Below are positions 1,960 through 42,835 of a DNA stretch of 64,000 nt, piece after piece; position 1 is the first letter of the stretch, and the number at the start of each line of letters is the position of its first letter. The stretch comes from an uncultured Bacteroidota bacterium (lineage in GTDB: Bacteria; Bacteroidota; Bacteroidia; 2-12-FULL-35-15). The notes beneath the pieces are model-generated. The model was not told the origin of the DNA. It worked only from the letters and a program-made list of their open reading frames with translations, and ran no database searches. The stretch spans positions 1,267 to 65,266 of the forward strand of contig CAINDA010000065.1 of the NCBI GenBank assembly GCA_903847205.1, in the 5' to 3' direction. The position numbers and the translations under genes are program-made.

Positions 1960-2085
1960 GTTGTAGAATCACCATGAATTTCTATATTATGGTATTTTTT
2001 TTATTACGACCTTTGGTTAAAGGACTTTTAGACCGGTATACTTGGACTTTTCTCGAATTTGTAATTCGGCAGAAAAGTAAACATA

Positions 2086-2166
2086 CGCCCAACATAAAAT
2101 ATGCTATACCTTAGCCGACACGCAAAAAAGCCAACGCACGGCATCGCATATTTGACCGTTAGCGGT
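2086..2166 (+). repeat. attC-like imperfect palindrome 0 (cGCCCAAC…aaatatgc…gcatattt…GTTAGcgg)
   Basis: The 'cgcccaacat-aaaatatgc' arm pairs with the reverse complement of 'gcatatttgaccgttagcgg'. Bulged bases are present. The termini resemble the RYYYAAC / GTTRRRY attC core sites. The element is nearly identical to the one at 3712-3792. Confidence 0.55.
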
Positions 2167-2191
2167 AAGTTTAAACGACAATAGTAAATTT

Positions 2192-2944
2192 ATGGCAGAC
2201 AATAAACGAAATTGGAATCCTTTAGTTTTTTTAGTAAAACTACTTGCCAAATGCTTGCCGACAAATCAAATTGCATCGACATTTTTGATTTCATTTTTTT
2301 TGGTCTTCATTTTTTTTATTGCTATTCAACTTAAAAATCCAAACAGCTTTATTTTTAATCTTGAAATTTGTGGAGGATTATATATTCTTTTGACAGCATG
2401 TATGTTTATTAGTGCATTTTGGGGGCGAAGACAACACAAGAAAGCATTAGAAGGTAAAATATTAAGACAACTAAAAGACCTTGGTTTATCTATTGAGAAC
2501 ATTGGAGATTATTGGGGCTATGCTGGAATTATAAAAAAATATTATCTAAAAATATTCTACAATTGGTCGACAAATTTATCTGGAAGTAACAACACTAAAG
2601 AAATTTGTATTATGGTATATTATTCTTCTCCTAAGACAATAGAAAACAAACTTGATGTTAAATATTTAGACAGTTTAAATACTAAATACAAAAACCCCTG
2701 GTATGCTTCAGACAACTTTATATTAAAATTTGAAAGTGCACATATAGAAATTCATACTTGCTATAATTTGTTTACGACCTTTCAAATAATAAAAAGCAGA
2801 ATAGACCGAGCATTTGAAATATTAGAAATCGAAAAACTTTTACCAATAAGTGAAATTGAGATCAACAAATTAATAGAAAAAGACGTGTATAGGTACGGAC
2901 CTTCAATTGAAACTTTCTGGAAAGCGATGGATGCAAAGATATAA
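2192..2944 (+). CDS. Hypothetical polytopic membrane protein (putative cassette 1 ORF)
   Basis: ATG at 2192 follows a palindromic attC-like site. The N-terminus has 2-3 hydrophobic helices. I recognise no domain. Confidence 0.5.
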   Translation: MADNKRNWNPLVFLVKLLAKCLPTNQIASTFLISFFLVFIFFIAIQLKNPNSFIFNLEICGGLYILLTACMFISAFWGRRQHKKALEGKILRQLKDLGLSIENIGDYWGYAGIIKKYYLKIFYNWSTNLSGSNNTKEICIMVYYSSPKTIENKLDVKYLDSLNTKYKNPWYASDNFILKFESAHIEIHTCYNLFTTFQIIKSRIDRAFEILEIEKLLPISEIEINKLIEKDVYRYGPSIETFWKAMDAKI

Positions 2945-2954
2945 GAAAAACCTA

Positions 2955-3006
2955 CCGCTAACATTATGTAAGCGTGCGAAAAGCACGCCTACATACTCGT
3001 TAGTGG
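2955..3006 (+). repeat. attC-like imperfect palindrome 1 (ccgCTAAC…GTTAGtgg), 52 bp
   Basis: 'ccgctaacattatgtaagcgtgcg' pairs with the reverse complement 'ccactaacgagtatgtaggcgtgcg' except for one mismatch and an inserted 'g'. The loop is the short sequence 'aaaa'. Confidence 0.55.
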
Positions 3007-3081
3007 CAATAAAATCAATGGACAACAAGACATATAATAAACAGACGAGTTTAAATAAATTTCACTACAACAGAAAAAACA

Positions 3082-3675
3082 ATGAAAATGATTTACGCAA
3101 TAATCGGACTTTTACTAGTCGCTGGAGTTACTTTCTATTTAACAAGTTGCAAGAGCAAATCAACAACTGACGAGCAGACAGGACAATCGAATAAAGTTGA
3201 CCCTAAGAACAATCCATATAACGGTCTCCGGAATATGGCTTTCAGTGCGACTGCGGAGCAAATTGGAGTTCAGCTTCCTGTAGACCAAACTAAAATTTAC
3301 GGAGTAATTATGGACTGGGACGTAGGAAATGGCACAGCGACACTTGTTTCATTTCTATCAGGAGACGCAAGTTTATATTTAAGTTCAGGAGGTGGTTTTA
3401 TTGGTGGGGTGGGGCATGACAATGTAAAACAAGCAGGAGAAGCATTTATAAATAAGGCGGAAAAATATTTAGGCAAAGTAACAAAAACAGAAGAGAATCC
3501 TCTTCCTGACAAAGATGGTGTGAAATTTTATTTTCTTACTAATAAAGGAAAATTTGTTGCTCAAGAGAGTATTAAAAATTTTGAAAACAATTCTTCCGAG
3601 TGGCTTGACTTATTTGAAGAAGGGAACAAATTAATAACAGAAATTAGAATTAGTTCTGAGAAAAATGAAAAGTGA
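3082..3675 (+). CDS. Hypothetical lipoprotein (putative cassette 2 ORF)
   Basis: Signal peptide with lipobox 'YLTSC'. A polar, Gly-rich mature region follows. The ORF is bounded by attC-like palindromes. Confidence 0.5.
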   Translation: MKMIYAIIGLLLVAGVTFYLTSCKSKSTTDEQTGQSNKVDPKNNPYNGLRNMAFSATAEQIGVQLPVDQTKIYGVIMDWDVGNGTATLVSFLSGDASLYLSSGGGFIGGVGHDNVKQAGEAFINKAEKYLGKVTKTEENPLPDKDGVKFYFLTNKGKFVAQESIKNFENNSSEWLDLFEEGNKLITEIRISSEKNEK

Positions 3676-3711
3676 AATTGAGCGACCCGACAATAATAAT
3701 AAGGTTTACTG

Positions 3712-3792
3712 CCACTAACATTAAATATGCAATACCTTTGCCGACACGCTCAAAAGCCAAATGCGCGGCATCGCATATTTGATCGTTAGGTG
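3712..3792 (+). repeat. attC-like imperfect palindrome 2 (ccaCTAAC…GTTAGGTg)
   Basis: The arms 'ccactaacattaaatatgc' and 'gcatatttgatcgttaggtg' pair with each other. The internal sequence 'gccgacacgc…gcgcggcatcgca' is shared with the site at 2086-2166. The 3' end 'GTTAGGT' fits the GTTRRRY core. Confidence 0.55.
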
Positions 3793-3818
3793 TCATTTGT
3801 AAGACGACAGAATAAGAC

Positions 3819-4487
3819 ATGAATTTATACGACTGTATTTCAAAAGACGATATTAGTGGGGCGACAAAGTTGCTTGAAAAAGGTGACAACCCAAATCAAT
3901 TAGACGAACATGGACAGACTCCTCTTTTTAGAATAGTTTATAATAAAACTCCAAGACAAATGGAGTTACTAAAATTGTTTATTGACTCTGGAGCTAATGT
4001 TAATTTCGAAAGACCGGACGGAACAACACCCATCTTTCATGCAAAGGGAGAAATTGCTGAACTCTTACTTGACAATGGAGCGAAAATAGAAAAAAAATCA
4101 AAGAATGGTTCGACACCACTCCATTATTCGTTAGACGTAGACACTATAAAAATCTTTTTAAAGGCTGGACTTTCTATTAATGCCAAAGACGACTCACTTT
4201 CGACTCCATTGCATACGTATGTTTACTTTGGTAGCCAATTAGTTGAATTTGCAATTACAAATGGAGCGGACGTCAATGTCAAGGACAAATACGGTCGAAC
4301 GCCTCTTGTTTGTTTAGCAATGACAGAAGGTGCTGATGAAAATGACAATAATGATATAATCAAAACAGCTCAAATATTAATTGACGCGGGAGCCGACATT
4401 AATTCAATTGACTCGGAGAAAAAAGGAGCTATTGATCATGCTATTGAAAATGACAATTCAATGCTTGCAGACTGGTTGAGATTTTAA
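3819..4487 (+). CDS. Ankyrin-repeat protein (putative cassette 3 ORF)
   Basis: Six tandem ~33-aa repeats carry the canonical 'G.TPLH.A…G…V..LL..GA' ankyrin signature, e.g. 'DEHGQTPLFRIV', 'KNGSTPLHYS', 'KYGRTPLVCLA' and 'DAGADINSID'. Confidence 0.75.
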   Translation: MNLYDCISKDDISGATKLLEKGDNPNQLDEHGQTPLFRIVYNKTPRQMELLKLFIDSGANVNFERPDGTTPIFHAKGEIAELLLDNGAKIEKKSKNGSTPLHYSLDVDTIKIFLKAGLSINAKDDSLSTPLHTYVYFGSQLVEFAITNGADVNVKDKYGRTPLVCLAMTEGADENDNNDIIKTAQILIDAGADINSIDSEKKGAIDHAIENDNSMLADWLRF

Positions 4488-4502
4488 GGAACAAACAAAC
4501 GT

Positions 4503-4635
4503 CACCTAACAGCGCACTGGCGCTATTTGGGTATTTGAGTAAAATGATAATAGGAGTTTTTAAATTACATTTGTCTTACCGACAAATTTGATTTCAAAAA
4601 TCCCAAACAGCGCCAGTGCGCAAAACGTTAGCAGC
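4503..4635 (+). repeat. attC-like imperfect palindrome 3 (cacCTAACagcgcactggcgct…agcgccagtgcgcaaaacGTTAGcagc), ~133 bp
   Basis: The ~30-bp arms are reverse complements with bulges. The left arm 'ACCTAAC' fits RYYYAAC. The arm sequence is very similar to the site at 5296-5394 and is followed by the shared tail 'CAGCAAGGCAA'. Confidence 0.55.
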
Positions 4636-4661
4636 AAGGCAATCGCAGACCGACACATGAC

Positions 4662-5282
4662 ATGAAATATAGACCGACACCATTAAATATTGTTTGTGGA
4701 CTTGCAATCGGACTTGCAATTTATTCTGCCGTAAAACCTGGACCTGAAGGTTGGGGTTTCTTAATGACAATATATCTCATTCCTGTAATTGTTATCGGAC
4801 TGTTAGCTGACTTCATTTTACAAAAATTTCTTCCCAAATATCTTCTGACATTTGTAATTGAACTTTTGCTTTTAACAGTTATTTACTTTGCATATTGTTG
4901 GACACAGCGAGCTAAAACACTTATCATACCTGATAAACTGCAAAGCCAATATGTTGTGACAATCTATGGTGTAGAAAACTCAGCAAAACTTCCAGACGGT
5001 TGGAACTACGAAATTAAAGTGCCGACTAACGGTATTCTATTGACTTCCTCAACCTTTGACAGTGACTTATCTGAGACAAAAATGAAAACTTACTCAGGAA
5101 TTAACCTTAACTCAGACGAGACAGAATTAGGTTGGGTAAGAATAACACATGACAAGTTTGACTGCAATGGTAAGACTTATGAATATCAATTTTGGATGGT
5201 GGACAGTTCTTGTTGTACGTATTCCAATCACGACATTGACAGTTTTAAAATAACTTTACAAAAACAATTCTGTGGACGATAG
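4662..5282 (+). CDS. Hypothetical membrane protein (putative cassette 4 ORF)
   Basis: Three N-terminal hydrophobic helices precede a Cys-containing soluble C-terminal region. The ORF is flanked by the nearly identical attC-like sites 3 and 4. Confidence 0.45.
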   Translation: MKYRPTPLNIVCGLAIGLAIYSAVKPGPEGWGFLMTIYLIPVIVIGLLADFILQKFLPKYLLTFVIELLLLTVIYFAYCWTQRAKTLIIPDKLQSQYVVTIYGVENSAKLPDGWNYEIKVPTNGILLTSSTFDSDLSETKMKTYSGINLNSDETELGWVRITHDKFDCNGKTYEYQFWMVDSSCCTYSNHDIDSFKITLQKQFCGR

Positions 5283-5295
5283 ATTAACATGCCCA

Positions 5296-5394
5296 GCTGC
5301 TAACAGCACATTTGCAATAGGCGGGGTTTCGTGCTCCGCATAAACATTAGTGGTAAAAATCCCGCCCATCGCAAATCTGCAAAACGTTGGCAGC
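5296..5394 (+). repeat. attC-like imperfect palindrome 4 (gctgCTAACagcacatttgc…gcaaatctgcaaaacGTTGGcagc)
   Basis: The arms are reverse complements with a 'gtttt' bulge. The 3' end and tail 'aaaacgttggcagcaaggcaa' is nearly identical to that of site 3. Confidence 0.55.
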
Positions 5395-5416
5395 AAGGCA
5401 ACTAAAAAAAAACAAA

Positions 5417-6207
5417 TAATGAGACAATTATTATTACTTATTTTTTATTCCACATCGACCATTCAACTTTCAAATGCGCAAGACAATAAATTTTTATTAT
5501 CAGGAAATACTACCGACTGTAAGACACATAAAAATATCAAAGGAGTAGAATTAAAATTATTTTGCAGTGACGGGCGCACTCTTGAGACATTTTCGGACTC
5601 CTTGGGTAGTTATTACTTCGACAGCTTTTTACTAAAAAAAAATATGAAATATGTCGTAACCACTGAGGTAACACGAGATTTAGGATATATTAATAGCTCT
5701 GGTAGATACAAATTTGGAACCTTCGACAGCGTTTCAAATAAGAATATAAAACAAGATTTCTGTTTGGTGCGAATAGAGCCCTGTACACTTGGTACTTTTA
5801 GAATATATTTTAAAAAAAATAGTGAAGAAAAATATTATGTCGACACATTGAGTATGGATTTAGAATCATATATAATGTTTATGAATGATAACCCAAGTTT
5901 CGTTATTGAAATTAACTCCAATTGTAGCTTTGACGAAAAGAATCCAGATTCGCTTTCTAAGAAACGAGCTGAATATTTAAAAAATATATTAATCAAAAAA
6001 GGAATAAATAAAGACAGAGTAGTTATTAAAGCATTGGGAATTAAACACCCTTCAGTAACCAAAGACCAAATTAATAAATTCCAAAGTTTAAAAGAAAAGG
6101 AAGAAGCAAACAGGAGCAATAGAATAGTGTTTTTCCAAATTATTAGAAAGGACTTTCCTGTTGACAACAAATCACAAAAAATTATTGATACAAACGACAC
6201 AGAATGA
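5417..6207 (+). CDS. Secreted OmpA-like C-terminal domain protein (putative cassette 5 ORF)
   Basis: The start was moved from the ORF-track position 5350, which lies inside the palindrome, to the ATG at 5417. That ATG gives a signal peptide 'MRQLLLLIFYSTSTIQLSNAQ'. The C-terminal 'LSKKRAEYLKNILIKKGINKDRVVIKALGIKHP' resembles an OmpA peptidoglycan-binding domain that lacks the GHTD motif. Confidence 0.5.
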
Positions 6208-6506
6208 AGATGGAGTGTGTTACGACCGCAGGGTTATTAAAGTTTTCAGGCAAGACCTGTGAGTAATAAGACCGGAGCGTGTTACGACCGAAGGGTTTTT
6301 AAAGTTTCTCGCTACGGCCTGCGCGTATTAAGACCGGAGCGTATTACGACCGAAGTGTTTTTAAAATTTTTCGGTAAGACCTTTGTGTATTTAGACCGGA
6401 GCGTATTTCGACCGCAGGGTTTTAAGTTTTTCGTTAAGACCTATGTGTATTAAGACCGGAGCGTGTTGCGACCGAAATGTTTTAATGTGTTTCGTTAAGA
6501 CCCCGG
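6208..6506. repeat. Five tandem copies of a ~61-bp repeat (consensus ~TAAGACCGGAGCGTGTTACGACCGAAGGGTTTTTAAAGTTTTTCGGTAAGACCTGTGTGTAT)
   Basis: Direct reading shows five head-to-tail units at roughly 80-90% identity with no unique spacers. The array starts directly after the stop codon of the last cassette ORF. Confidence 0.8.
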
Positions 6507-7424: not shown

Positions 7425-8525
7425 ATGCGCAGACTTCTTTTTTTTATTTTAATTTTTAGCAGCACATACAGCCATTCGCAGGTGTTTTGCACCGCATGTT
7501 ATAACCAGGTAAAAGTTCTTAATCCAAAAGCCGATAATATGATTGTTAACGGCAGTTTCGAAACTAATAACTGTTCTGTTGATAATACCCTGTCGTCGTT
7601 TGTTCCGCTCTCTTCTTTCTATAACTGCTCCATATCAGGCTGGACAGTTAACGGAGGCGGCACTGATACCCGCGCATGTACAATAGATACTTCCTTTAAT
7701 TCCGTGCCGGATGGAAATGTAATTGTTTACCTTGGAAATTCAATATGCAAAGCCTGTTCATCAGCAGATGATGATATTTCATGCATTAAATTCACCGGCT
7801 GCGAAATGCCTGCACTGCCGCAAGGCTTCCCTGTTAATACGCCCAATTACGGCGGAACAAAGGGCGTTACGCTGGAACAGATGATGACAGGATTAGTAAA
7901 AGGAAATGCTTACTCGTTAGAATTTTGGGCCGGCGGCGAATGTTTTTTTTCTGATCCCGGCCTGTTTGCAGTAGATGTAGGCTTTGGTAATATACTGCTG
8001 GAATGTGAGCAGTCATGCCCATCATCGTATTCAACAATGAATGGCAAGCGTTATATGGTCAGCTTTGTTGCTTCGGCTGCATCACAGAATTTAAAATTTA
8101 CCAGCTGGGGGCATGTATGTTCAACATGTACTGCTGTCTGCCTCGATGATGTTCACCTATATCCCATTATGCAGTCAGATACTGCAATTGTAAAATGTTT
8201 TATTCCCTGCTCAATAAAAATAGAAAAGAGTCCGGCAAATATTTTCTCGCCTAATAACGACGGCATCAACGATGTTTTTTTTCCTTTCGTAAATCTCAAC
8301 TATCAATATGAAAATTATGATTTTAAAAATTATGATCTGCAGATATTCGACCGCTGGGGAATTAAAGTATTTGAAACTTCTGACCTTGATTCTAAAGGCT
8401 GGAACGGGATTACGTTAAAAAATAAAAAAGCCGATGAAGGAATCTTTTATTGGATAGTAAAAGGAATAAGCAATTGTTCCGATGCTGCTATTGATGAAAA
8501 AGGTTTTGTGAGTTTGGTGAGATAA
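7425..8525 (+). CDS. Cys-rich secreted protein with T9SS type B C-terminal domain
   Basis: Signal peptide 'MRRLLFFILIFSSTYSHSQ'. The mature region has many cysteines. The C-terminus ('IFSPNNDGINDVFFP…IFDRWGIKVFE…GFVSLVR') is a type B CTD. Confidence 0.6.
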   Translation: MRRLLFFILIFSSTYSHSQVFCTACYNQVKVLNPKADNMIVNGSFETNNCSVDNTLSSFVPLSSFYNCSISGWTVNGGGTDTRACTIDTSFNSVPDGNVIVYLGNSICKACSSADDDISCIKFTGCEMPALPQGFPVNTPNYGGTKGVTLEQMMTGLVKGNAYSLEFWAGGECFFSDPGLFAVDVGFGNILLECEQSCPSSYSTMNGKRYMVSFVASAASQNLKFTSWGHVCSTCTAVCLDDVHLYPIMQSDTAIVKCFIPCSIKIEKSPANIFSPNNDGINDVFFPFVNLNYQYENYDFKNYDLQIFDRWGIKVFETSDLDSKGWNGITLKNKKADEGIFYWIVKGISNCSDAAIDEKGFVSLVR

Positions 8526-8611
8526 AATTTATTTATAATTTTTTTTTAATAAATTTTATAAATCGAAAAGTATGTTTAAATTTTATTCTGTAATAGTGTA
8601 TCCCTGCCCGC

Positions 8612-8785
8612 TTTCTCGACTCCGCTCGAAATGGCATCGCACGTTGGCAGGCAAAGGGGAAAAATGTCGAAGTGGGCAGGTCACACTGAGCTTGTCGAAG
8701 TGTTTGGGAAGCCGGCGCACATATTTCGACAAGCTCAATATGACAACACGTAATTCGTTTTCTCCATTTCGAGCGGAGTCGAGAA
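8612..8785. repeat. Nested palindromic element: perfect 23-bp inverted repeat (TTTCTCGACTCCGCTCGAAATGG / CCATTTCGAGCGGAGTCGAGAAA) around a ~128-bp core with an inner 12-bp IR
   Basis: Inverted repeats are visible at 8612-8634 and 8763-8785. An inner pair GAGCTTGTCGAA (8688) / TTCGACAAGCTC (8725) is also present, as is a direct repeat of TGTCGAAGTG. The element is intergenic and no plausible ORF spans it; the 82-aa and 106-aa ORFs in the track are artefacts of the palindrome. Confidence 0.6.
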
Positions 8786-8938
8786 ATGAAGGAAGGCAGA
8801 CCTGCAAATTTTTTAAATGAAATCTAAACTTTACTAAGATGAAAAACTGTTTTATAAAATAAATTAAATCATGCAACCTTTTGAATTCTCTTACATCTAA
8901 CAAAATAAATCAATAATATATATTCTAAAAAAAACACC

Positions 8939-10816
8939 ATGAAAAATAAAATATACATATCAATTTTAATTGCAGGTATGCTTCCGCTTTTATCTGTTAG
9001 AGCGCAGAACACAACCTTGGGCAATATTAATCTGCAGCAGATGCCGTTCTTTAACCATGACTCTACTCAATGTATGTCAGTTGGTGCAATGAATTATACT
9101 ATTACAATAGCTCATGCTTTTTTGGGGGACTCATTAAAAATAGTTAATACAGACTATGCTATGCTCATTGATACTGCTACAAATTATTTGGGCCAAAATC
9201 CATGGGTTATTAATTATTCTCTTCCTGCATCTCAGGTTTATGATCAAGATATGAATAATACCCCCGGCTGGGCGAATATTTACATCTTTGGTACTAAAAT
9301 TATTTTGCAGCAGCATGATTCTATCCAAACCCCTTTGGATACAATGTTTAATATCAATAATAGTGTCGGCGGCATTGTAAATAACCCCTGTATGTTTGGA
9401 AATATTTCAGGAAAAATTTATATCGACAATAACAGCAATTGTATATTCGACGGTACAGATGTTCCTCTGCAGGGAGTTAATGCAGCAGGTCTTGGAAATT
9501 TAGCTGCCCCCTCAGCTTTCCCAACAACCAGCCATAACGGATATACAGACGGCAGCGGAAATTATGTAATGGCAATGCAGCAGACTTATATGACAAATTT
9601 TACTGTTCAGATTCCATCTAACTATCAATTTATTTTTCCTTCCACATCCTGCTCTCCTGTGATGTACACGGGTACTTCACTGCCTCAGTTGAATTATAAT
9701 TTTTCGCTGCAGTGCACAAGCAATGTAGATGTGCAGTGTTATGCAAATTCACCAGGAATTGCACGGCCTAACAAAGCTTTTTTTATGTTCCCTTATGTGA
9801 GCAATACAGGTTGTGATTCAGTTTCGGGACAATTGAAAATGGTGTTAGATTCACGTGTTGTTTATAATGCCGGATTAAGTTCAAATCCAGCTTCATCAAT
9901 ACATGGTGATACCTTAATCTGGAATTACACCAATCTTACTAACTTAACTAACGGTGCATATTGGAATAGTTTTGGTTCCGCCATTCACTTAACTCCTAAC
10001 TTAAGCGTGCATCAGGGCGACACACTCTGTTTCAGAGTAATGACGAATATACCGTCCAATGATTTGGATCCAACAAATAATGATTATACTATCTGCCTGC
10101 CTGTAGTAAATTCGTACGACCCTAACGTAAAATCAGTTTCTCCGAAAGGCAGAGGCCCTCAAGGGGATATTCCGGTAACAACTGATGTACTTACTTATTC
10201 AGTCAGCTTTCAAAATACGGGAAATGCTCCTGCATTAAACATCAGTATAATTGATACTTTGGATTCTGATATTATGCCGCGCAGCTTGAAAATTTTAGGA
10301 TCAAGCCATAATGTTTCTCCTGAGTGGCTTGCTCCGGGTATTGTTAAATTTAATTTTTACAATATTAATTTAGCCGACAGCACAAGCAATGAAGCTGCAA
10401 GCCATGGCTCAATAAGGTTCAGTGTGAAATTAAATTCCGGATTGCTTTTAGGAACAAAAATAAAAAACACTGCGGATATTTATTTTGATTACAATGCTGC
10501 TGTTGTTACTAATACAACTTTGAATACTATTGCATCTGTTACCGGCATTGAAGAGCTTGCAGGTTCATCAGCTTCAGTAAAAGTGTATCCTAATCCATTC
10601 AGCGATAACACAACATTTGTAATGCAGAGTGATAAATTAAATGAAACATATTCATTTGAAATGTATGATCTGCTTGGTAAGCAAGTGAAATCGATAAAGC
10701 AGATAACAGGCAAAGAATTCCAAATTTCACGCAGCGGATTAGAAAATGGAGTTTACTTTTACAAAATTTATACCGCTGAAAATACTGTGAGCATTGGTAA
10801 ATTGGTAATACAATAA
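8939..10816 (+). CDS. Secreted protein with T9SS type A (Por_Secre_tail-like) C-terminal sorting domain
   Basis: Signal peptide. The C-terminal ~80 aa ('KVYPNPFSDNTTFVMQSD…YDLLGKQVKSI…GVYFYKIYT…GKLVIQ') matches the type A CTD. A CARDB/DUF11-like segment 'DPNVKSVSPKG…TYSVSFQNTGNAP' is present. Confidence 0.65.
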   Translation: MKNKIYISILIAGMLPLLSVRAQNTTLGNINLQQMPFFNHDSTQCMSVGAMNYTITIAHAFLGDSLKIVNTDYAMLIDTATNYLGQNPWVINYSLPASQVYDQDMNNTPGWANIYIFGTKIILQQHDSIQTPLDTMFNINNSVGGIVNNPCMFGNISGKIYIDNNSNCIFDGTDVPLQGVNAAGLGNLAAPSAFPTTSHNGYTDGSGNYVMAMQQTYMTNFTVQIPSNYQFIFPSTSCSPVMYTGTSLPQLNYNFSLQCTSNVDVQCYANSPGIARPNKAFFMFPYVSNTGCDSVSGQLKMVLDSRVVYNAGLSSNPASSIHGDTLIWNYTNLTNLTNGAYWNSFGSAIHLTPNLSVHQGDTLCFRVMTNIPSNDLDPTNNDYTICLPVVNSYDPNVKSVSPKGRGPQGDIPVTTDVLTYSVSFQNTGNAPALNISIIDTLDSDIMPRSLKILGSSHNVSPEWLAPGIVKFNFYNINLADSTSNEAASHGSIRFSVKLNSGLLLGTKIKNTADIYFDYNAAVVTNTTLNTIASVTGIEELAGSSASVKVYPNPFSDNTTFVMQSDKLNETYSFEMYDLLGKQVKSIKQITGKEFQISRSGLENGVYFYKIYTAENTVSIGKLVIQ

Positions 10817-41233: not shown

Positions 41234-42835
41234 ATGAAACAAAGGTACTTCAAATTTTATTTATTTGTCATTCTTTCCGGATGCTTGGTAAACGGTTCTT
41301 ACAGCCAATGCGCCACTACTAATTTTGCCGGGAATTTCACTCAAAATACTTCTGCATTTCTTTCGGGAATCTATATTGTTGCCGGTACATTTTATGTTCC
41401 GGCAGGAGTAACAATATTTGTTCAGCCCTTTGCAACGGGTAGCTGCGGTAAATTTGAAGTGCATGCAAACAAAATAATTATTGAAGGGATAATAAACGGT
41501 GATTTTGCCGGATATTCCGGAGGTGCAGGCGGGAGCGGAGGCATAGCTGTTACCAGCTTAACAGGCGATGTTGTTGCGCTTAATACCTGCAGCAATGCTG
41601 ATTTAACTGGTCAGGTAACTGTGCAGGGAGGTAAAGGAGGAATTACTGGAAATGGTGTAGGAGGTGGTATTTGCGGAGGAAATGGATCAGATGGTTCTGG
41701 GCCCAAACAGCAATGTTTATCAACTGATGAAGCTGGAATGATAGGTAGCGGCGGCGGCGGCGGAGGTGGAGGAGGAGGGAGTTACGGCGGTATTGCATCT
41801 TACGGCGGCGACGGCGGCGACGGCACTGATTTTTATCAGGCAACAACTGTTAATGTTTCAACTGGATTTGTTGTAGTTGCTGGCCCCGGCGGTTTGGGCG
41901 GAGTCGCCGGTCTGCCATACGGGACAGCTGCGGGCACCGATATTGAATTAGGTGCAGGAGGTGCAGGAGGCGGAGGGGGAGCACGTTCATTTGATGTAGG
42001 ATTAACTGGAAATGAAGGAGGCGCGGGTGGCGGAATGGTTAAACTTTTTGCAACTGATACAATAAAAGTGAGCGGAACAGTCACCGTCAACGGGAAAAAT
42101 GGGCAGACTGGCGGAGATGGAGGAAACGGAGGCCAATCTCCAAAATGCTGCACCGACCCCTGTGATGATTGTGGTGAGACAACTCTTTCATGCGGTGCAG
42201 GCGGTGGCGGAGGAGCAGGCGGAGGTTCTGGAGGCGGGATATATATAGAAACACAGAACTATGCTTCTATTACCGGAACACTCAGTTCAAAAGGAGGTAA
42301 CGGAGGAGTAGGCGGATTGAAAGGCATGGGAGCCAGCTGTGCATATACTGGGGGTGTTTTCTGCGGCAACGATCAAACAATTGTCAGCGGTGACGGAGAT
42401 GCCGGCAAAAAAGGCGGAGGAGGAAGCGGCGGACGCATTAAAATATTTTCTCCGGACTGCTTCAACTCAATTATAACCCCCGTTAATATTATTTCAGGCG
42501 GCACAGGAGTGGATTCTGCTTCAGCAGGCACCTATTTTTTAGGCTGTCTTACAACAACAATTGATGAGCTCTCTTATCATACTTTCGACCTTGTAGTTTA
42601 TCCAAACCCGGCACAAAATGAAATAGTGCTTAAATTTAAAAACAATATATTGGCCAATAGCGTAGGCTGTTTTATCATTTATGATATCAGCGGACGTGAA
42701 ATTAAACAAGTGGTGTGTAAATTAAATCAGGATTCAGAGCAGACAATTATTATTTCTGATTTAAGCAAAGGCATCTACACCATTTATCTTACTGCTGAAG
42801 GAAAAAAACTTCATCAAAAATTCATAAAAAACTAA
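41234..42835 (+). CDS. Glycine-rich secreted protein with T9SS type A C-terminal sorting domain
   Basis: Signal peptide. Long GGxGG tracts run through the mature region. The CTD reads 'LVVYPNPAQNEIVLKF…IYDISGREIKQV…GIYTIYLTAEGKKLHQKFIKN'. Confidence 0.65.
   Translation: MKQRYFKFYLFVILSGCLVNGSYSQCATTNFAGNFTQNTSAFLSGIYIVAGTFYVPAGVTIFVQPFATGSCGKFEVHANKIIIEGIINGDFAGYSGGAGGSGGIAVTSLTGDVVALNTCSNADLTGQVTVQGGKGGITGNGVGGGICGGNGSDGSGPKQQCLSTDEAGMIGSGGGGGGGGGGSYGGIASYGGDGGDGTDFYQATTVNVSTGFVVVAGPGGLGGVAGLPYGTAAGTDIELGAGGAGGGGGARSFDVGLTGNEGGAGGGMVKLFATDTIKVSGTVTVNGKNGQTGGDGGNGGQSPKCCTDPCDDCGETTLSCGAGGGGGAGGGSGGGIYIETQNYASITGTLSSKGGNGGVGGLKGMGASCAYTGGVFCGNDQTIVSGDGDAGKKGGGGSGGRIKIFSPDCFNSIITPVNIISGGTGVDSASAGTYFLGCLTTTIDELSYHTFDLVVYPNPAQNEIVLKFKNNILANSVGCFIIYDISGREIKQVVCKLNQDSEQTIIISDLSKGIYTIYLTAEGKKLHQKFIKN

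Follow-up and report, generated by a model that had tools for sequence, protein, structure and literature searches.

The spacer between two genes for cargo proteins of the type IX secretion system (T9SS) in an uncultured Bacteroidota bacterium holds a GC-rich nested palindrome, which we analyzed within a 64-kb stretch of contig CAINDA010000065.1 of the source genome (hereafter, the window); loci and contigs from other assemblies that were compared with it are labeled with L-numbers. [quoted passage not shown] The coordinates given in an initial annotation of this DNA, 8612-8785, take in the GC-rich core alone; the element, to which no strand is assigned, ends at about 8568 and 8835 and is a long imperfect palindrome of ~268 nt with IS5-type ends and a GC-rich center. 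The G+C content is ~55% in the palindrome region, 34% in the surrounding spacer, and 38.6% in the window as a whole.

In alignments, the ends of the element (AAGTATGTTTAAATTTTATT ... AATGAAATCTAAACTTTACT) correspond to the terminal inverted repeats of a family of palindromic MITEs, 150-190 nt in length, from other Bacteroidota metagenome-assembled genomes (MAGs), the consensus ends of which are GTTTAAATTTTATT on the left and AATRAAATTTAAAC on the right. An alignment of window positions 8550-8850 with six loci of this family (L028, L032, L071, L104, L122, and L128) reveals common ends around a common core, and the ends also align with those of an insertion sequence (IS) in L166. The left terminal inverted repeat, AAGTATGTTTAAATTTTATTC (8568-8588, + strand), contains a 15-mer, GTTTAAATTTTATTC, that is identical to the right end of the L166 IS read inward and to the MITE ends, and this is the sole exact copy of the 15-mer in the window. 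The right terminal inverted repeat (8815-8835, - strand; AAATGAAATCTAAACTTTACT on the + strand) aligns with the family right end TTGAATGAAATTTAAACAGRCTC; it reads ..TTTTTTAAATGAAATCTAAACTTTACT and terminates at 8835, is the inverted partner of the left repeat with 3 mismatches in 15 positions, and matches the family at 12 of 14 positions (AATGAAATCTAAAC compared with AATAAAATTTAAAC).

Members of the family are flanked by 3-bp target duplications that read TTA/TTA for L071 and the first element of L104, TAA/TAA for L032 and the second element of L077, and TAT/TAT for the second element of L104; the flanks of the L028 element are TAA and TGA. The L028 and L032 elements, which lie on different contigs of one MAG, are nearly the same in sequence but differ in their flanks, and two elements are present in one locus in each of L104, L122, and L077. 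The head-to-head pair of the hairpin module that is described below (TTTCTCGACTCCGCTCGAAATGAC and GTCATTTCGAGCGGAGTCGAGAAA, separated by 10-13 nt) occurs in 17 loci, in several of which the palindrome extends by ~45-60 nt in both directions, as far as the ends GAGYCYGTTTAAATTTTAT ... ATAAAATTTAAACRGRCTC. The family ends can also hold other cores, namely a tail-to-tail pair (L077) or an inner-type head-to-head pair (L104).

The IS in L166 (946-1802; the locus is also seen in L165, L167, and L168) is a complete element of 857 bp that reads TAA|GAGCGTGTTTAAATTT ... AAATTTAAACAGGCTC|TAA, with the longer readings TAA|GAGCGTGTTTAAATTTAC for the left end and TTGAATAAAATTTAAACAGGCTC|TAA for the right end. 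It shares with the MITE family the 3-bp TAA duplication and at least 15-26 nt of each end in identical or near-identical form, and the L122 MITE matches the IS end without a mismatch over 26 nt at its right end. Two open reading frames (ORFs) encode its transposase, one of 146 aa with DUF4096 (PF13340) and the start of the DDE domain and one of 97 aa with the remainder of that domain (PF01609). A length within 850-1000 bp, GAG ends, and a 3-bp duplication presumably place this IS with the IS1031/IS427-type subgroups, for which the ISfinder table gives 800-1050 bp, a 2-4-bp duplication, and ends GAG or Ga/g. The L166 IS differs from the MITEs in that it encodes a transposase and contains no hairpin module, and it does not occur in the window; given the lack of the module in the IS, we posit that the MITEs are IS ends placed around foreign cargo and not simple internal deletions.

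A scan of viral contigs with the family terminal repeat identified three (L154, L157, and L161) whose ends read GAGCCTGTTTAAATTTTATTTAATAAC..., a sequence that corresponds in reverse complement to the final codons of the transposase (..IRMLLNKI*). The C-terminal peptide of the transposase matches PF13586 (DDE_Tnp_1_2) with 29.7 bits and also matches plasmid features annotated as IS5-family transposase. Because the stop codon of the transposase (..LLNKI*) falls inside the right terminal repeat of the IS, AATAAAATTTAAAC is conserved in the MITEs; the occurrence of the IS end at the termini of several viral contigs, in turn, indicates that the IS lineage travels on phage or integrative elements. 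A more distant intact IS with the same architecture is present on a Bacteroides fragilis plasmid (TTA|GAAACTGTTTTGAATTG ... AAATCAAAACAGCTTC|TTA), and its transposase of 257 aa matches NF033580 (transpos_IS5_3) with 232 bits. The IS in L163 has the duplication TTA/TTA. An Emticicia plasmid carries an IS remnant with the same end, ..GAATAAAATTTAAACAGCCTC|TTA. Other transposase fragments, such as P0121 in L164, are truncated and uninformative; in that 38-kb contig, a truncated IS5-family transposase C-terminus (1158-2321) directly follows a phage-integrase-family gene.

The presence of the element also distinguishes the window from orthologous sites. The initial annotation had placed the palindrome between two T9SS cargo genes, and Pfam bears this out: the upstream gene (7425-8525, + strand) encodes a protein with a CHU_C sorting domain (PF13585, E 4e-15; orthologues in L146 and L148) and has its stop codon 42 nt before the element, and the downstream gene (8939-10816, + strand) encodes a protein with DUF7619 (PF24595, 1e-39) and Por_Secre_tail (PF18962, 3.5e-12) domains and starts 103 nt after it. 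For the protein encoded downstream, we retrieved 665 homologues. In the two closest orthologous loci found that keep this gene order, the CHU_C and DUF7619 genes are separated by 107 nt (L146 and L147) and 127 nt (L148 and L149), with no module and no IS-type end, compared with 413 nt in the window, or 145 nt after removal of 8568-8835. In L142, L144, and L150, the DUF7619 gene is preceded by other upstream neighbors. At L144 (2818), L145 (547), and L150, the CHU_C gene is missing and a spacer of 320-390 nt holds AAGCATGTTTAATTTT, a sequence weakly like the left end of the element that could be a chance occurrence in AT-rich DNA or the remnant of another insertion.

Several observations weigh against our interpretation. 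The orthologous proteins are only 64% (L146 and L147) and 68% (L148 and L149) identical to the product of the downstream gene and the spacers cannot be aligned base by base, such that loss of the element in the relatives is possible. The right-end 15-mer alone is not statistically distinctive in the AT-rich spacer; the outermost hexamers of the window copy, AAGTAT and AGTAAA, differ from the family sequence GAGYCY, though they still resemble each other; and the flanking trinucleotides, GAA on the left and AAG on the right, do not form a clean duplication. A tblastn search of the window with the IS5 transposase gave no match, the "parent" IS is known from other organisms, and only one copy of the element is visible in the 64 kb covered. 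Finally, the origin of the central 107 nt that we consider below fits insertion and foldback duplication alike.

With these points taken into account, a MITE-like mobile element, one of the possibilities raised in the initial annotation, is supported by shared ends that match an IS5-type IS, by a multi-copy family with 3-bp duplications, by the small, non-coding sequence without a transposase, and by the absence of the element from orthologous loci. The copy count proposed there as a check returns a single copy in the window, yet the element belongs to a repeat family that is dispersed elsewhere; the condition under which the annotation would have left only a terminator or regulatory hairpin (a single copy with no Rfam match) is therefore too narrow. 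We hypothesize that the element arrived by cut-and-paste transposition, in which an IS5-family transposase would have acted in trans on the terminal repeats, that it integrated at a T-W-A/T trinucleotide, and that the extra ~107 nt with a second module pair may have been added later to its center. Based on the diverged outermost hexamers, the lack of a clean duplication, the limited complementarity of the outer arms (59%, compared with 23/23 in the core), and the absence of a transposase within 64 kb, the window copy is probably old and now immobile. A conspicuous GC-rich palindrome is thereby explained as a decayed transposon insertion and not as an element that regulates the T9SS cargo genes. 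If the host is affected at all, the effect would be secondary, for example through a hairpin of a predicted -90 kcal/mol in read-through transcripts or through assembly breakage.

The core of the element is built from four copies of one hairpin module. The initial annotation had described a perfect 23-bp inverted repeat around a core of ~128 bp; the arms are indeed 100% complementary (TTTCTCGACTCCGCTCGAAATGG / CCATTTCGAGCGGAGTCGAGAAA, at 8612-8634 and 8764-8786), with the end coordinate having been given one base short, and they enclose 129 nt. In the window, the 23-mer is present as this pair alone, and it arose in 0 of 100 dinucleotide shuffles. The smaller repeats and strings that had been reported were recovered as well: a 12-bp inverted repeat (GAGCTTGTCGAA / TTCGACAAGCTC, at 8688-8699 and 8725-8736), which a repeat search extends to 27-nt arms of 81% complementarity (8680-8706 and 8718-8744), a direct repeat of TGTCGAAGTG (8665-8674 and 8693-8702), and the flanking strings CCCTGCC (8602-8608) and GGCAG (8795-8799), both of which are used in the minimum-free-energy fold. 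This fold has an energy of -92.4 kcal/mol on the + strand (z -7.2) and -90.0 kcal/mol on the - strand, with z about -7 on both.

Each module consists of a conserved, unpaired 5'-GTCA, a variable stem of 4-5 bp, the loop GAGC(G[GA]A|TT)GTCGA, and the complementary strand of the stem. To avoid circularity, we assessed covariation with 63 distinct units that no search pattern had fixed, taken from the 19-mer loci described below and each comprising the core GAGC-NNN-GTCGA with 10 nt to its left and right. Of the cells in the 5 columns flanking the 12-nt core to the left and to the right, 84.4% pair, compared with 55.2% in shuffled units (0 of 500 shuffles; n=63), and the covariation score is 0.828, compared with 0.286 in shuffles and 0.12-0.21 when the partner is slid by 1-3 columns. 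The stem variants include TTTC/GAAA, GTTC/GAAC, CATT/AATG, GGCT/AGCC, CCCT/AGGG, and ATGTC/GACAT, among others; as judged from the sequences, the helix could reach into the "loop" through G.A/A.G juxtapositions. From the 63 units we built a covariance model (R1), which matches exactly four modules in the window, all within the element, and the next best match has E > 1. The left 23-nt arm (8612-8634 on the + strand) is the reverse complement of module A (R1 match at 8606-8637, - strand, 33.8 bits, E 2.9e-8), and the right arm (8764-8786, + strand) is module A' (8761-8792, + strand, 31.4 bits, E 1.8e-7). Between them lie module B (GTCACA-CTGAGCTTGTCGAAG-TGT, 8678-8708, + strand, 16.6 bits, E 0.01) and its inverted partner B' (8716-8746, - strand, GTCATATTGAGCTTGTCGAAATATG on its own strand, 17.0 bits, E 0.0078), which together form the inner inverted repeat, and the copy of TGTCGAAGTG at 8665-8674 (+ strand) is a partial third copy of the 3' half of module B. 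The order in the element is thus A reversed, B, B reversed, and A, or two nested inverted pairs.

In the arms of the core, the window copy differs from the family by a compensatory change, ATGAC/GTCAT to ATGGC/(T)CCAT, by which the 23 nt remain perfectly paired. The loop at the center of the core is a GCGCAC-like sequence of 10-13 nt in family members, compared with 129 nt in the window copy, and the start of this interior, ATCGCACG, still resembles the family loop (L061, AACGCACG; L104, TTGGCACGTTG). The extra ~107 nt contain a tail-to-tail module pair, as is found free-standing in phage contigs, plus the partial third copy at 8665, and are bracketed by a 5-nt direct repeat, CACGT, read from the sequence at 8640-8644 and 8747-8751 (+ strand); these repeats may, as weak evidence, mark the junction of a secondary insertion. 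We favor the interpretation that the central 107 nt are a secondary insertion of a module-pair palindrome into the apical loop. The alternative is an inverted duplication of a half-element (end - A - spacer - B), from which the same symmetry is expected. The core modules have been kept at the cross-genome consensus while the rest of the element decayed, which suggests that it is the module, and not the MITE frame, that is under constraint or homogenisation.

The module is widely distributed. The 19-mer of the outer arm, TCTCGACTCCGCTCGAAAT, is present at at least 120 loci in species-representative genomes, most of them from Bacteroidota; the matches listed include Flavobacterium, Aquimarina, Winogradskyella, Chitinophaga, and Bacteroidales. 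Other contigs with TCTCGACTCCGCTCGAAAT are binned as Chloroflexota, Acidobacteriota, Verrucomicrobiota, Armatimonadota, and Firmicutes, where single cases are possibly bin contamination. Nearly all listed loci have one extended context, AGATTTCTCGACTCCGCTCGAAATGACA. Sixteen viral contigs, with a G+C content of 39-69%, carry the inner palindrome motif at a gap of 5-35 nt, often as several intergenic copies. Modules are found singly, in head-to-head pairs (21 cases), and in many tail-to-tail pairs, and one core can be set in several outer frames, namely the IS5-type GAGYCYGTTTAAA, GTCGTTTAGTT / GTCGTTTTTTAAG, or GTCTAAAAAGT, or in none. Relative to neighboring ORFs, the units show no preferred orientation (30 co-oriented tandem, 22 anti-oriented tandem, 24 convergent, and 13 divergent).

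Searches for a partner or a description of the module were negative within their scope. Clustering of the 349 ORFs adjoining units in 120 loci revealed no recurrent protein family, and a further lead, "LSLSKH/FDKLR"-type hairpins flanking small GIY-YIG or four-helix-bundle genes, is not supported by this clustering; neither type of gene is enclosed by the few inverted module pairs that lie 60-600 nt apart. At gathering score, an Rfam scan of 19 related loci matched tRNAs alone, with no family covering the module. Full-text literature searches with module sequences and translated peptide strings returned nothing relevant, the literature on REPIN/RAYT systems and on MITEs offered analogies alone, a blastn search of the element against plasmids and phages gave no match at E <= 0.01, and a metagenome search with the interior 20-mer CGCACGTTGGCAGGCAAAGG gave two chance matches in unrelated coding DNA alone.

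Two further arrangements of the module were observed. Eleven loci of Flavobacteriia (L042, L048, L055, L062, L067, L075, L080, L086, L098, L118, and L139) have a second palindromic frame, in which the modules of a tail-to-tail pair (GTCACATTGAGCG.AGTCGAAATG - ~22 nt - TTTCTCGACTCCGCTCGAAATGACA) lie between the arms of an inverted repeat, GTCTAAAAAGT ... ACTTTTTAGAC, that is set ~10-20 nt further out, forming a distinct repeat family of ~130 nt. On some contigs that come from outside Bacteroidota or from gut MAGs, namely L113 (~7467, - strand), L132/L038, L116, and L102, tandem repeats of the module's 3' part (..CGCTCGAAATGACAGATGT, 6-8 times) come after it, a pattern that suggests slippage or minisatellite formation seeded by the module.

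Three other explanations of the feature were weighed against a MITE. A structured RNA serving the flanking T9SS cargo genes as a stabilizer in the 3' untranslated region, an RNase III substrate, or a cis-regulatory RNA would be in keeping with the very stable fold and with the covarying module stem, and elements such as ERIC and Correia are MITEs known to function as hairpins at the RNA level after transcription. A permissive Rfam scan also found a weak likeness of the inner hairpin (8680-8744; E 7.7e-5) to RF02901, AaHKsRNA41 (Aggregatibacter small RNA 41), a family defined by RNA-seq whose stem, CUGAGCUUGYCGAAG...UUCGRCAAGCUCA, nearly coincides with the inner palindrome; at 29.8 bits, the match falls below the gathering score of 97, and it extends over 88 of 187 model positions, which reflects a shared palindrome and not family membership. 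We nevertheless regard an RNA function as improbable given that the element is absent from the orthologous locus, that the module is tied to no gene family and is co-oriented with its neighbors in 30 cases compared with 22 anti-oriented, and that no promoter or terminator signal stands out. The structured non-coding RNA proposed in the initial annotation finds no Rfam family at gathering score either in the window (0 matches) or in the 19 related loci, and the symmetric palindrome folds alike on both strands. That the element serves the upstream gene as an intrinsic terminator or regulatory hairpin, which the position of a strong hairpin 42 nt after the stop codon might suggest, is in our view very unlikely: the stem is not followed by a T-run (the nearest T6 is ~24 nt past it), a terminator scan of 8300-9100 gives 0 sites, orthologues lack the element, and 268 nt with four modules and IS-type ends far exceed what a terminator needs.

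We give almost no credence to the idea that the element is an attC-type integron site or a derivative of one from a cassette-like array at 2-5.4 kb of the window. Five spacers upstream are attC-like (..CTAAC ... CGTTAGY) and have strings in common with the element, as the initial annotation had pointed out: GGCATCGCA (8633) recurs at 2140 and 3767, and CGTTGGCAG (8642) recurs at 5385. This sharing is, however, near the chance level, with p = 0.14, 0.048, and 0.077 for 7-, 8-, and 9-mers shared between the interior of the element and the five spacers (dinucleotide shuffles), and CGCACG is part of the GCGCAC-like central loop of family members from unrelated genomes. The boundaries of the element, ..GTTTAAAT on the left (GTT) and ..CTAAAC on the right (AAC), have the reverse of attC polarity, with no R'' (RYYYAAC) or R' (GTTRRRY) at either one, and the sole GTTGGCA is internal. 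The element lies, moreover, 3 kb past the last attC-like site, beyond an oppositely oriented CvpA gene and a block of tandem repeats, and its ends match those of an IS5-family IS. We also considered a retron msr/msd region, in which repeats flank a long hairpin, and rejected it because the downstream ORF encodes a T9SS protein and not a reverse transcriptase.

It is also conceivable, although we find it doubtful, that the hairpin module is itself the active entity and the IS5-type frame is incidental, in which case the nesting would result from module pairs inserting into or next to one another in the manner of clusters of bacterial interspersed mosaic elements (BIMEs). This explanation is compatible with a MITE and concerns the upkeep of the perfect 23-nt arms, which contrast with the diverged outer arms in the window copy. 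The module resembles the repetitive extragenic palindromic (REP) sequences, BIMEs, and REP doublets forming hairpins (REPINs) that are associated with REP-associated tyrosine transposases (RAYTs; TnpA_REP) in that these comprise a 5' tetranucleotide and a short hairpin with a covarying stem and occur in intergenic regions singly or as inverted doublets (PMC6006769, PMC3116915). The context of the module is likewise REP-like, with enrichment between convergent or tandem genes and no strand bias, and one core is found across different frames as one frame is found with different cores. However, its tetranucleotide is GTCA and not GT[AG]G, its conserved loop is 11-12 nt compared with 2-5 nt in REPs, and it is near-identical across orders and phyla (an identical 19-mer at the loci counted above) whereas REPs are species-specific. 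A six-frame scan of ~1.1 Mb of compared loci, as opposed to whole genomes, in which RAYTs are single-copy, found no ORF with an HUH/Y1 motif ([ND]H.H ... Y[IV]..[NE][PQ]), no protein family recurs beside the module, and none of the Bacteroidetes subclass-2.6 REP sequences in the portion of the PMC6006769 supplement consulted resembles it. The module lacks a GT[AG]G foot, a short loop, and species specificity, no RAYT partner turned up in the loci scanned, and we do not file it as a REP or REPIN.

The module may instead be an uncharacterized cross-phylum element in its own right, either a mobile hairpin unit that seeks apical loops and is served by a trans-acting enzyme or the binding site of a widely conserved protein that recognizes hairpins, and we put this forward as a possibility that falls short of being probable. 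Preferential landing in the apical loops of existing DNA hairpins would explain the nesting in the window element, which would then be a natural "two-generation" record of module insertion. Our analysis isolates a hairpin module that is very widely shared, covaries with unusual clarity, and has a conserved loop; no Rfam family, paper, or partner protein for it turned up. If a dedicated enzyme or binding protein exists, it would constitute a new system of hairpin-DNA or hairpin-RNA recognition that spans a wide range of hosts; otherwise, the module would remain a sequence to mask in screens for non-coding RNAs and small ORFs. The module stands at the apex of several palindromic frames that are unrelated to one another.

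As a MITE, the element is ordinary, and it belongs to an apparently undescribed IS5-type MITE family in Bacteroidota that is documented here together with its parent IS. Repeats of the GAGAC.GTT type are known from IS5-family MITEs of Porphyromonas gingivalis, which share GAGACYKTTGCA-type repeats with the IS5-family ISPg elements, and BrickBuilt and MITEPgRS/MITE464 of this species resemble the family described here in being small, non-coding, intergenic, and mobilized in trans (PMC4596501). Further points of likeness are terminal repeats that begin GAG.C.GTT and match resident IS5 elements (ISPg4, GAGACTGTTGCA) and a central cargo unrelated to the transposase gene. Unlike these elements, our family has a different terminal repeat (GAGYCYGTTTAAATTTTAT), is a foldback palindrome over its whole length, has at its center a pair of conserved hairpin modules and not a minisatellite, and makes clean 3-bp TWA/TAT duplications, whereas those of BrickBuilt are irregular. 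The ERIC/IRU and Correia/NEMIS elements are intergenic, imperfect palindromes of 100-170 nt with short AT-rich target duplications that form long hairpins when co-transcribed; they differ from the window element in belonging to other phyla, in their terminal repeats, and in having no conserved apical module.

The element has practical consequences for assembly and gene prediction. Independent short-read assemblies with identical flanking genes break there: L017 ends near window position 8702, L021 starts near 8737, and L018-L020 end 39-62 nt past the upstream stop codon. We attribute the breaking of metagenome contigs in or beside the element to its long palindrome or repeat. A gene caller placed a 43-aa "gene" across the left half (L017, 2016-2144), and the element both interrupts assemblies and gives rise to spurious small ORFs. 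No Pfam family was matched by the ORFs of 82 and 106 aa that overlap it in the window. Outside the element, ATGCAACCTTTT (8871-8882, + strand) is a promoter-proximal motif upstream of the downstream gene, and the same motif is present in the L146/L147 spacer as AAATGCAACCTTTTTTTT.

Elsewhere in the window, five consecutive spacers at 1960-2191, 2945-3081, 3676-3818, 4488-4661, and 5283-5420 each contain an imperfect palindrome with ..C[CT]AAC as its left boundary and CGTTAG[CGT] or CGTTGGC as its right boundary. The small ORFs between them lie on one strand, at 2192-2944, 3082-3675, 3819-4487 (ankyrin repeats), 4662-5282, and 5350-6207; the last has a weak OmpA-like match (24.8 bits, below the cutoff of 27.2), and the other three are without a Pfam match. 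From its sequence, the region 1960-5420 looks like an integron-type cassette array or a cluster of attC sites lacking integron-integrases (CALIN) in a Bacteroidota genome. A 62-nt unit, GGAGCGTGTTACGACCGAAGGGTTTTTAAAGTTTTTCGGTAAGACCTGTGTGTATTAAGACC, is repeated in 4.7 tandem copies with 82% matches at 6212-6502, in the interval from the OmpA-like ORF to the CvpA gene. The strongest G+C island of the window is at 41234-42835, reaching 72% over 41477-42483 in the glycine-rich middle of a secreted-type protein of 533 aa, and we ascribe it to the composition of poly-Gly/GGxGG repeats and not to foreign DNA.

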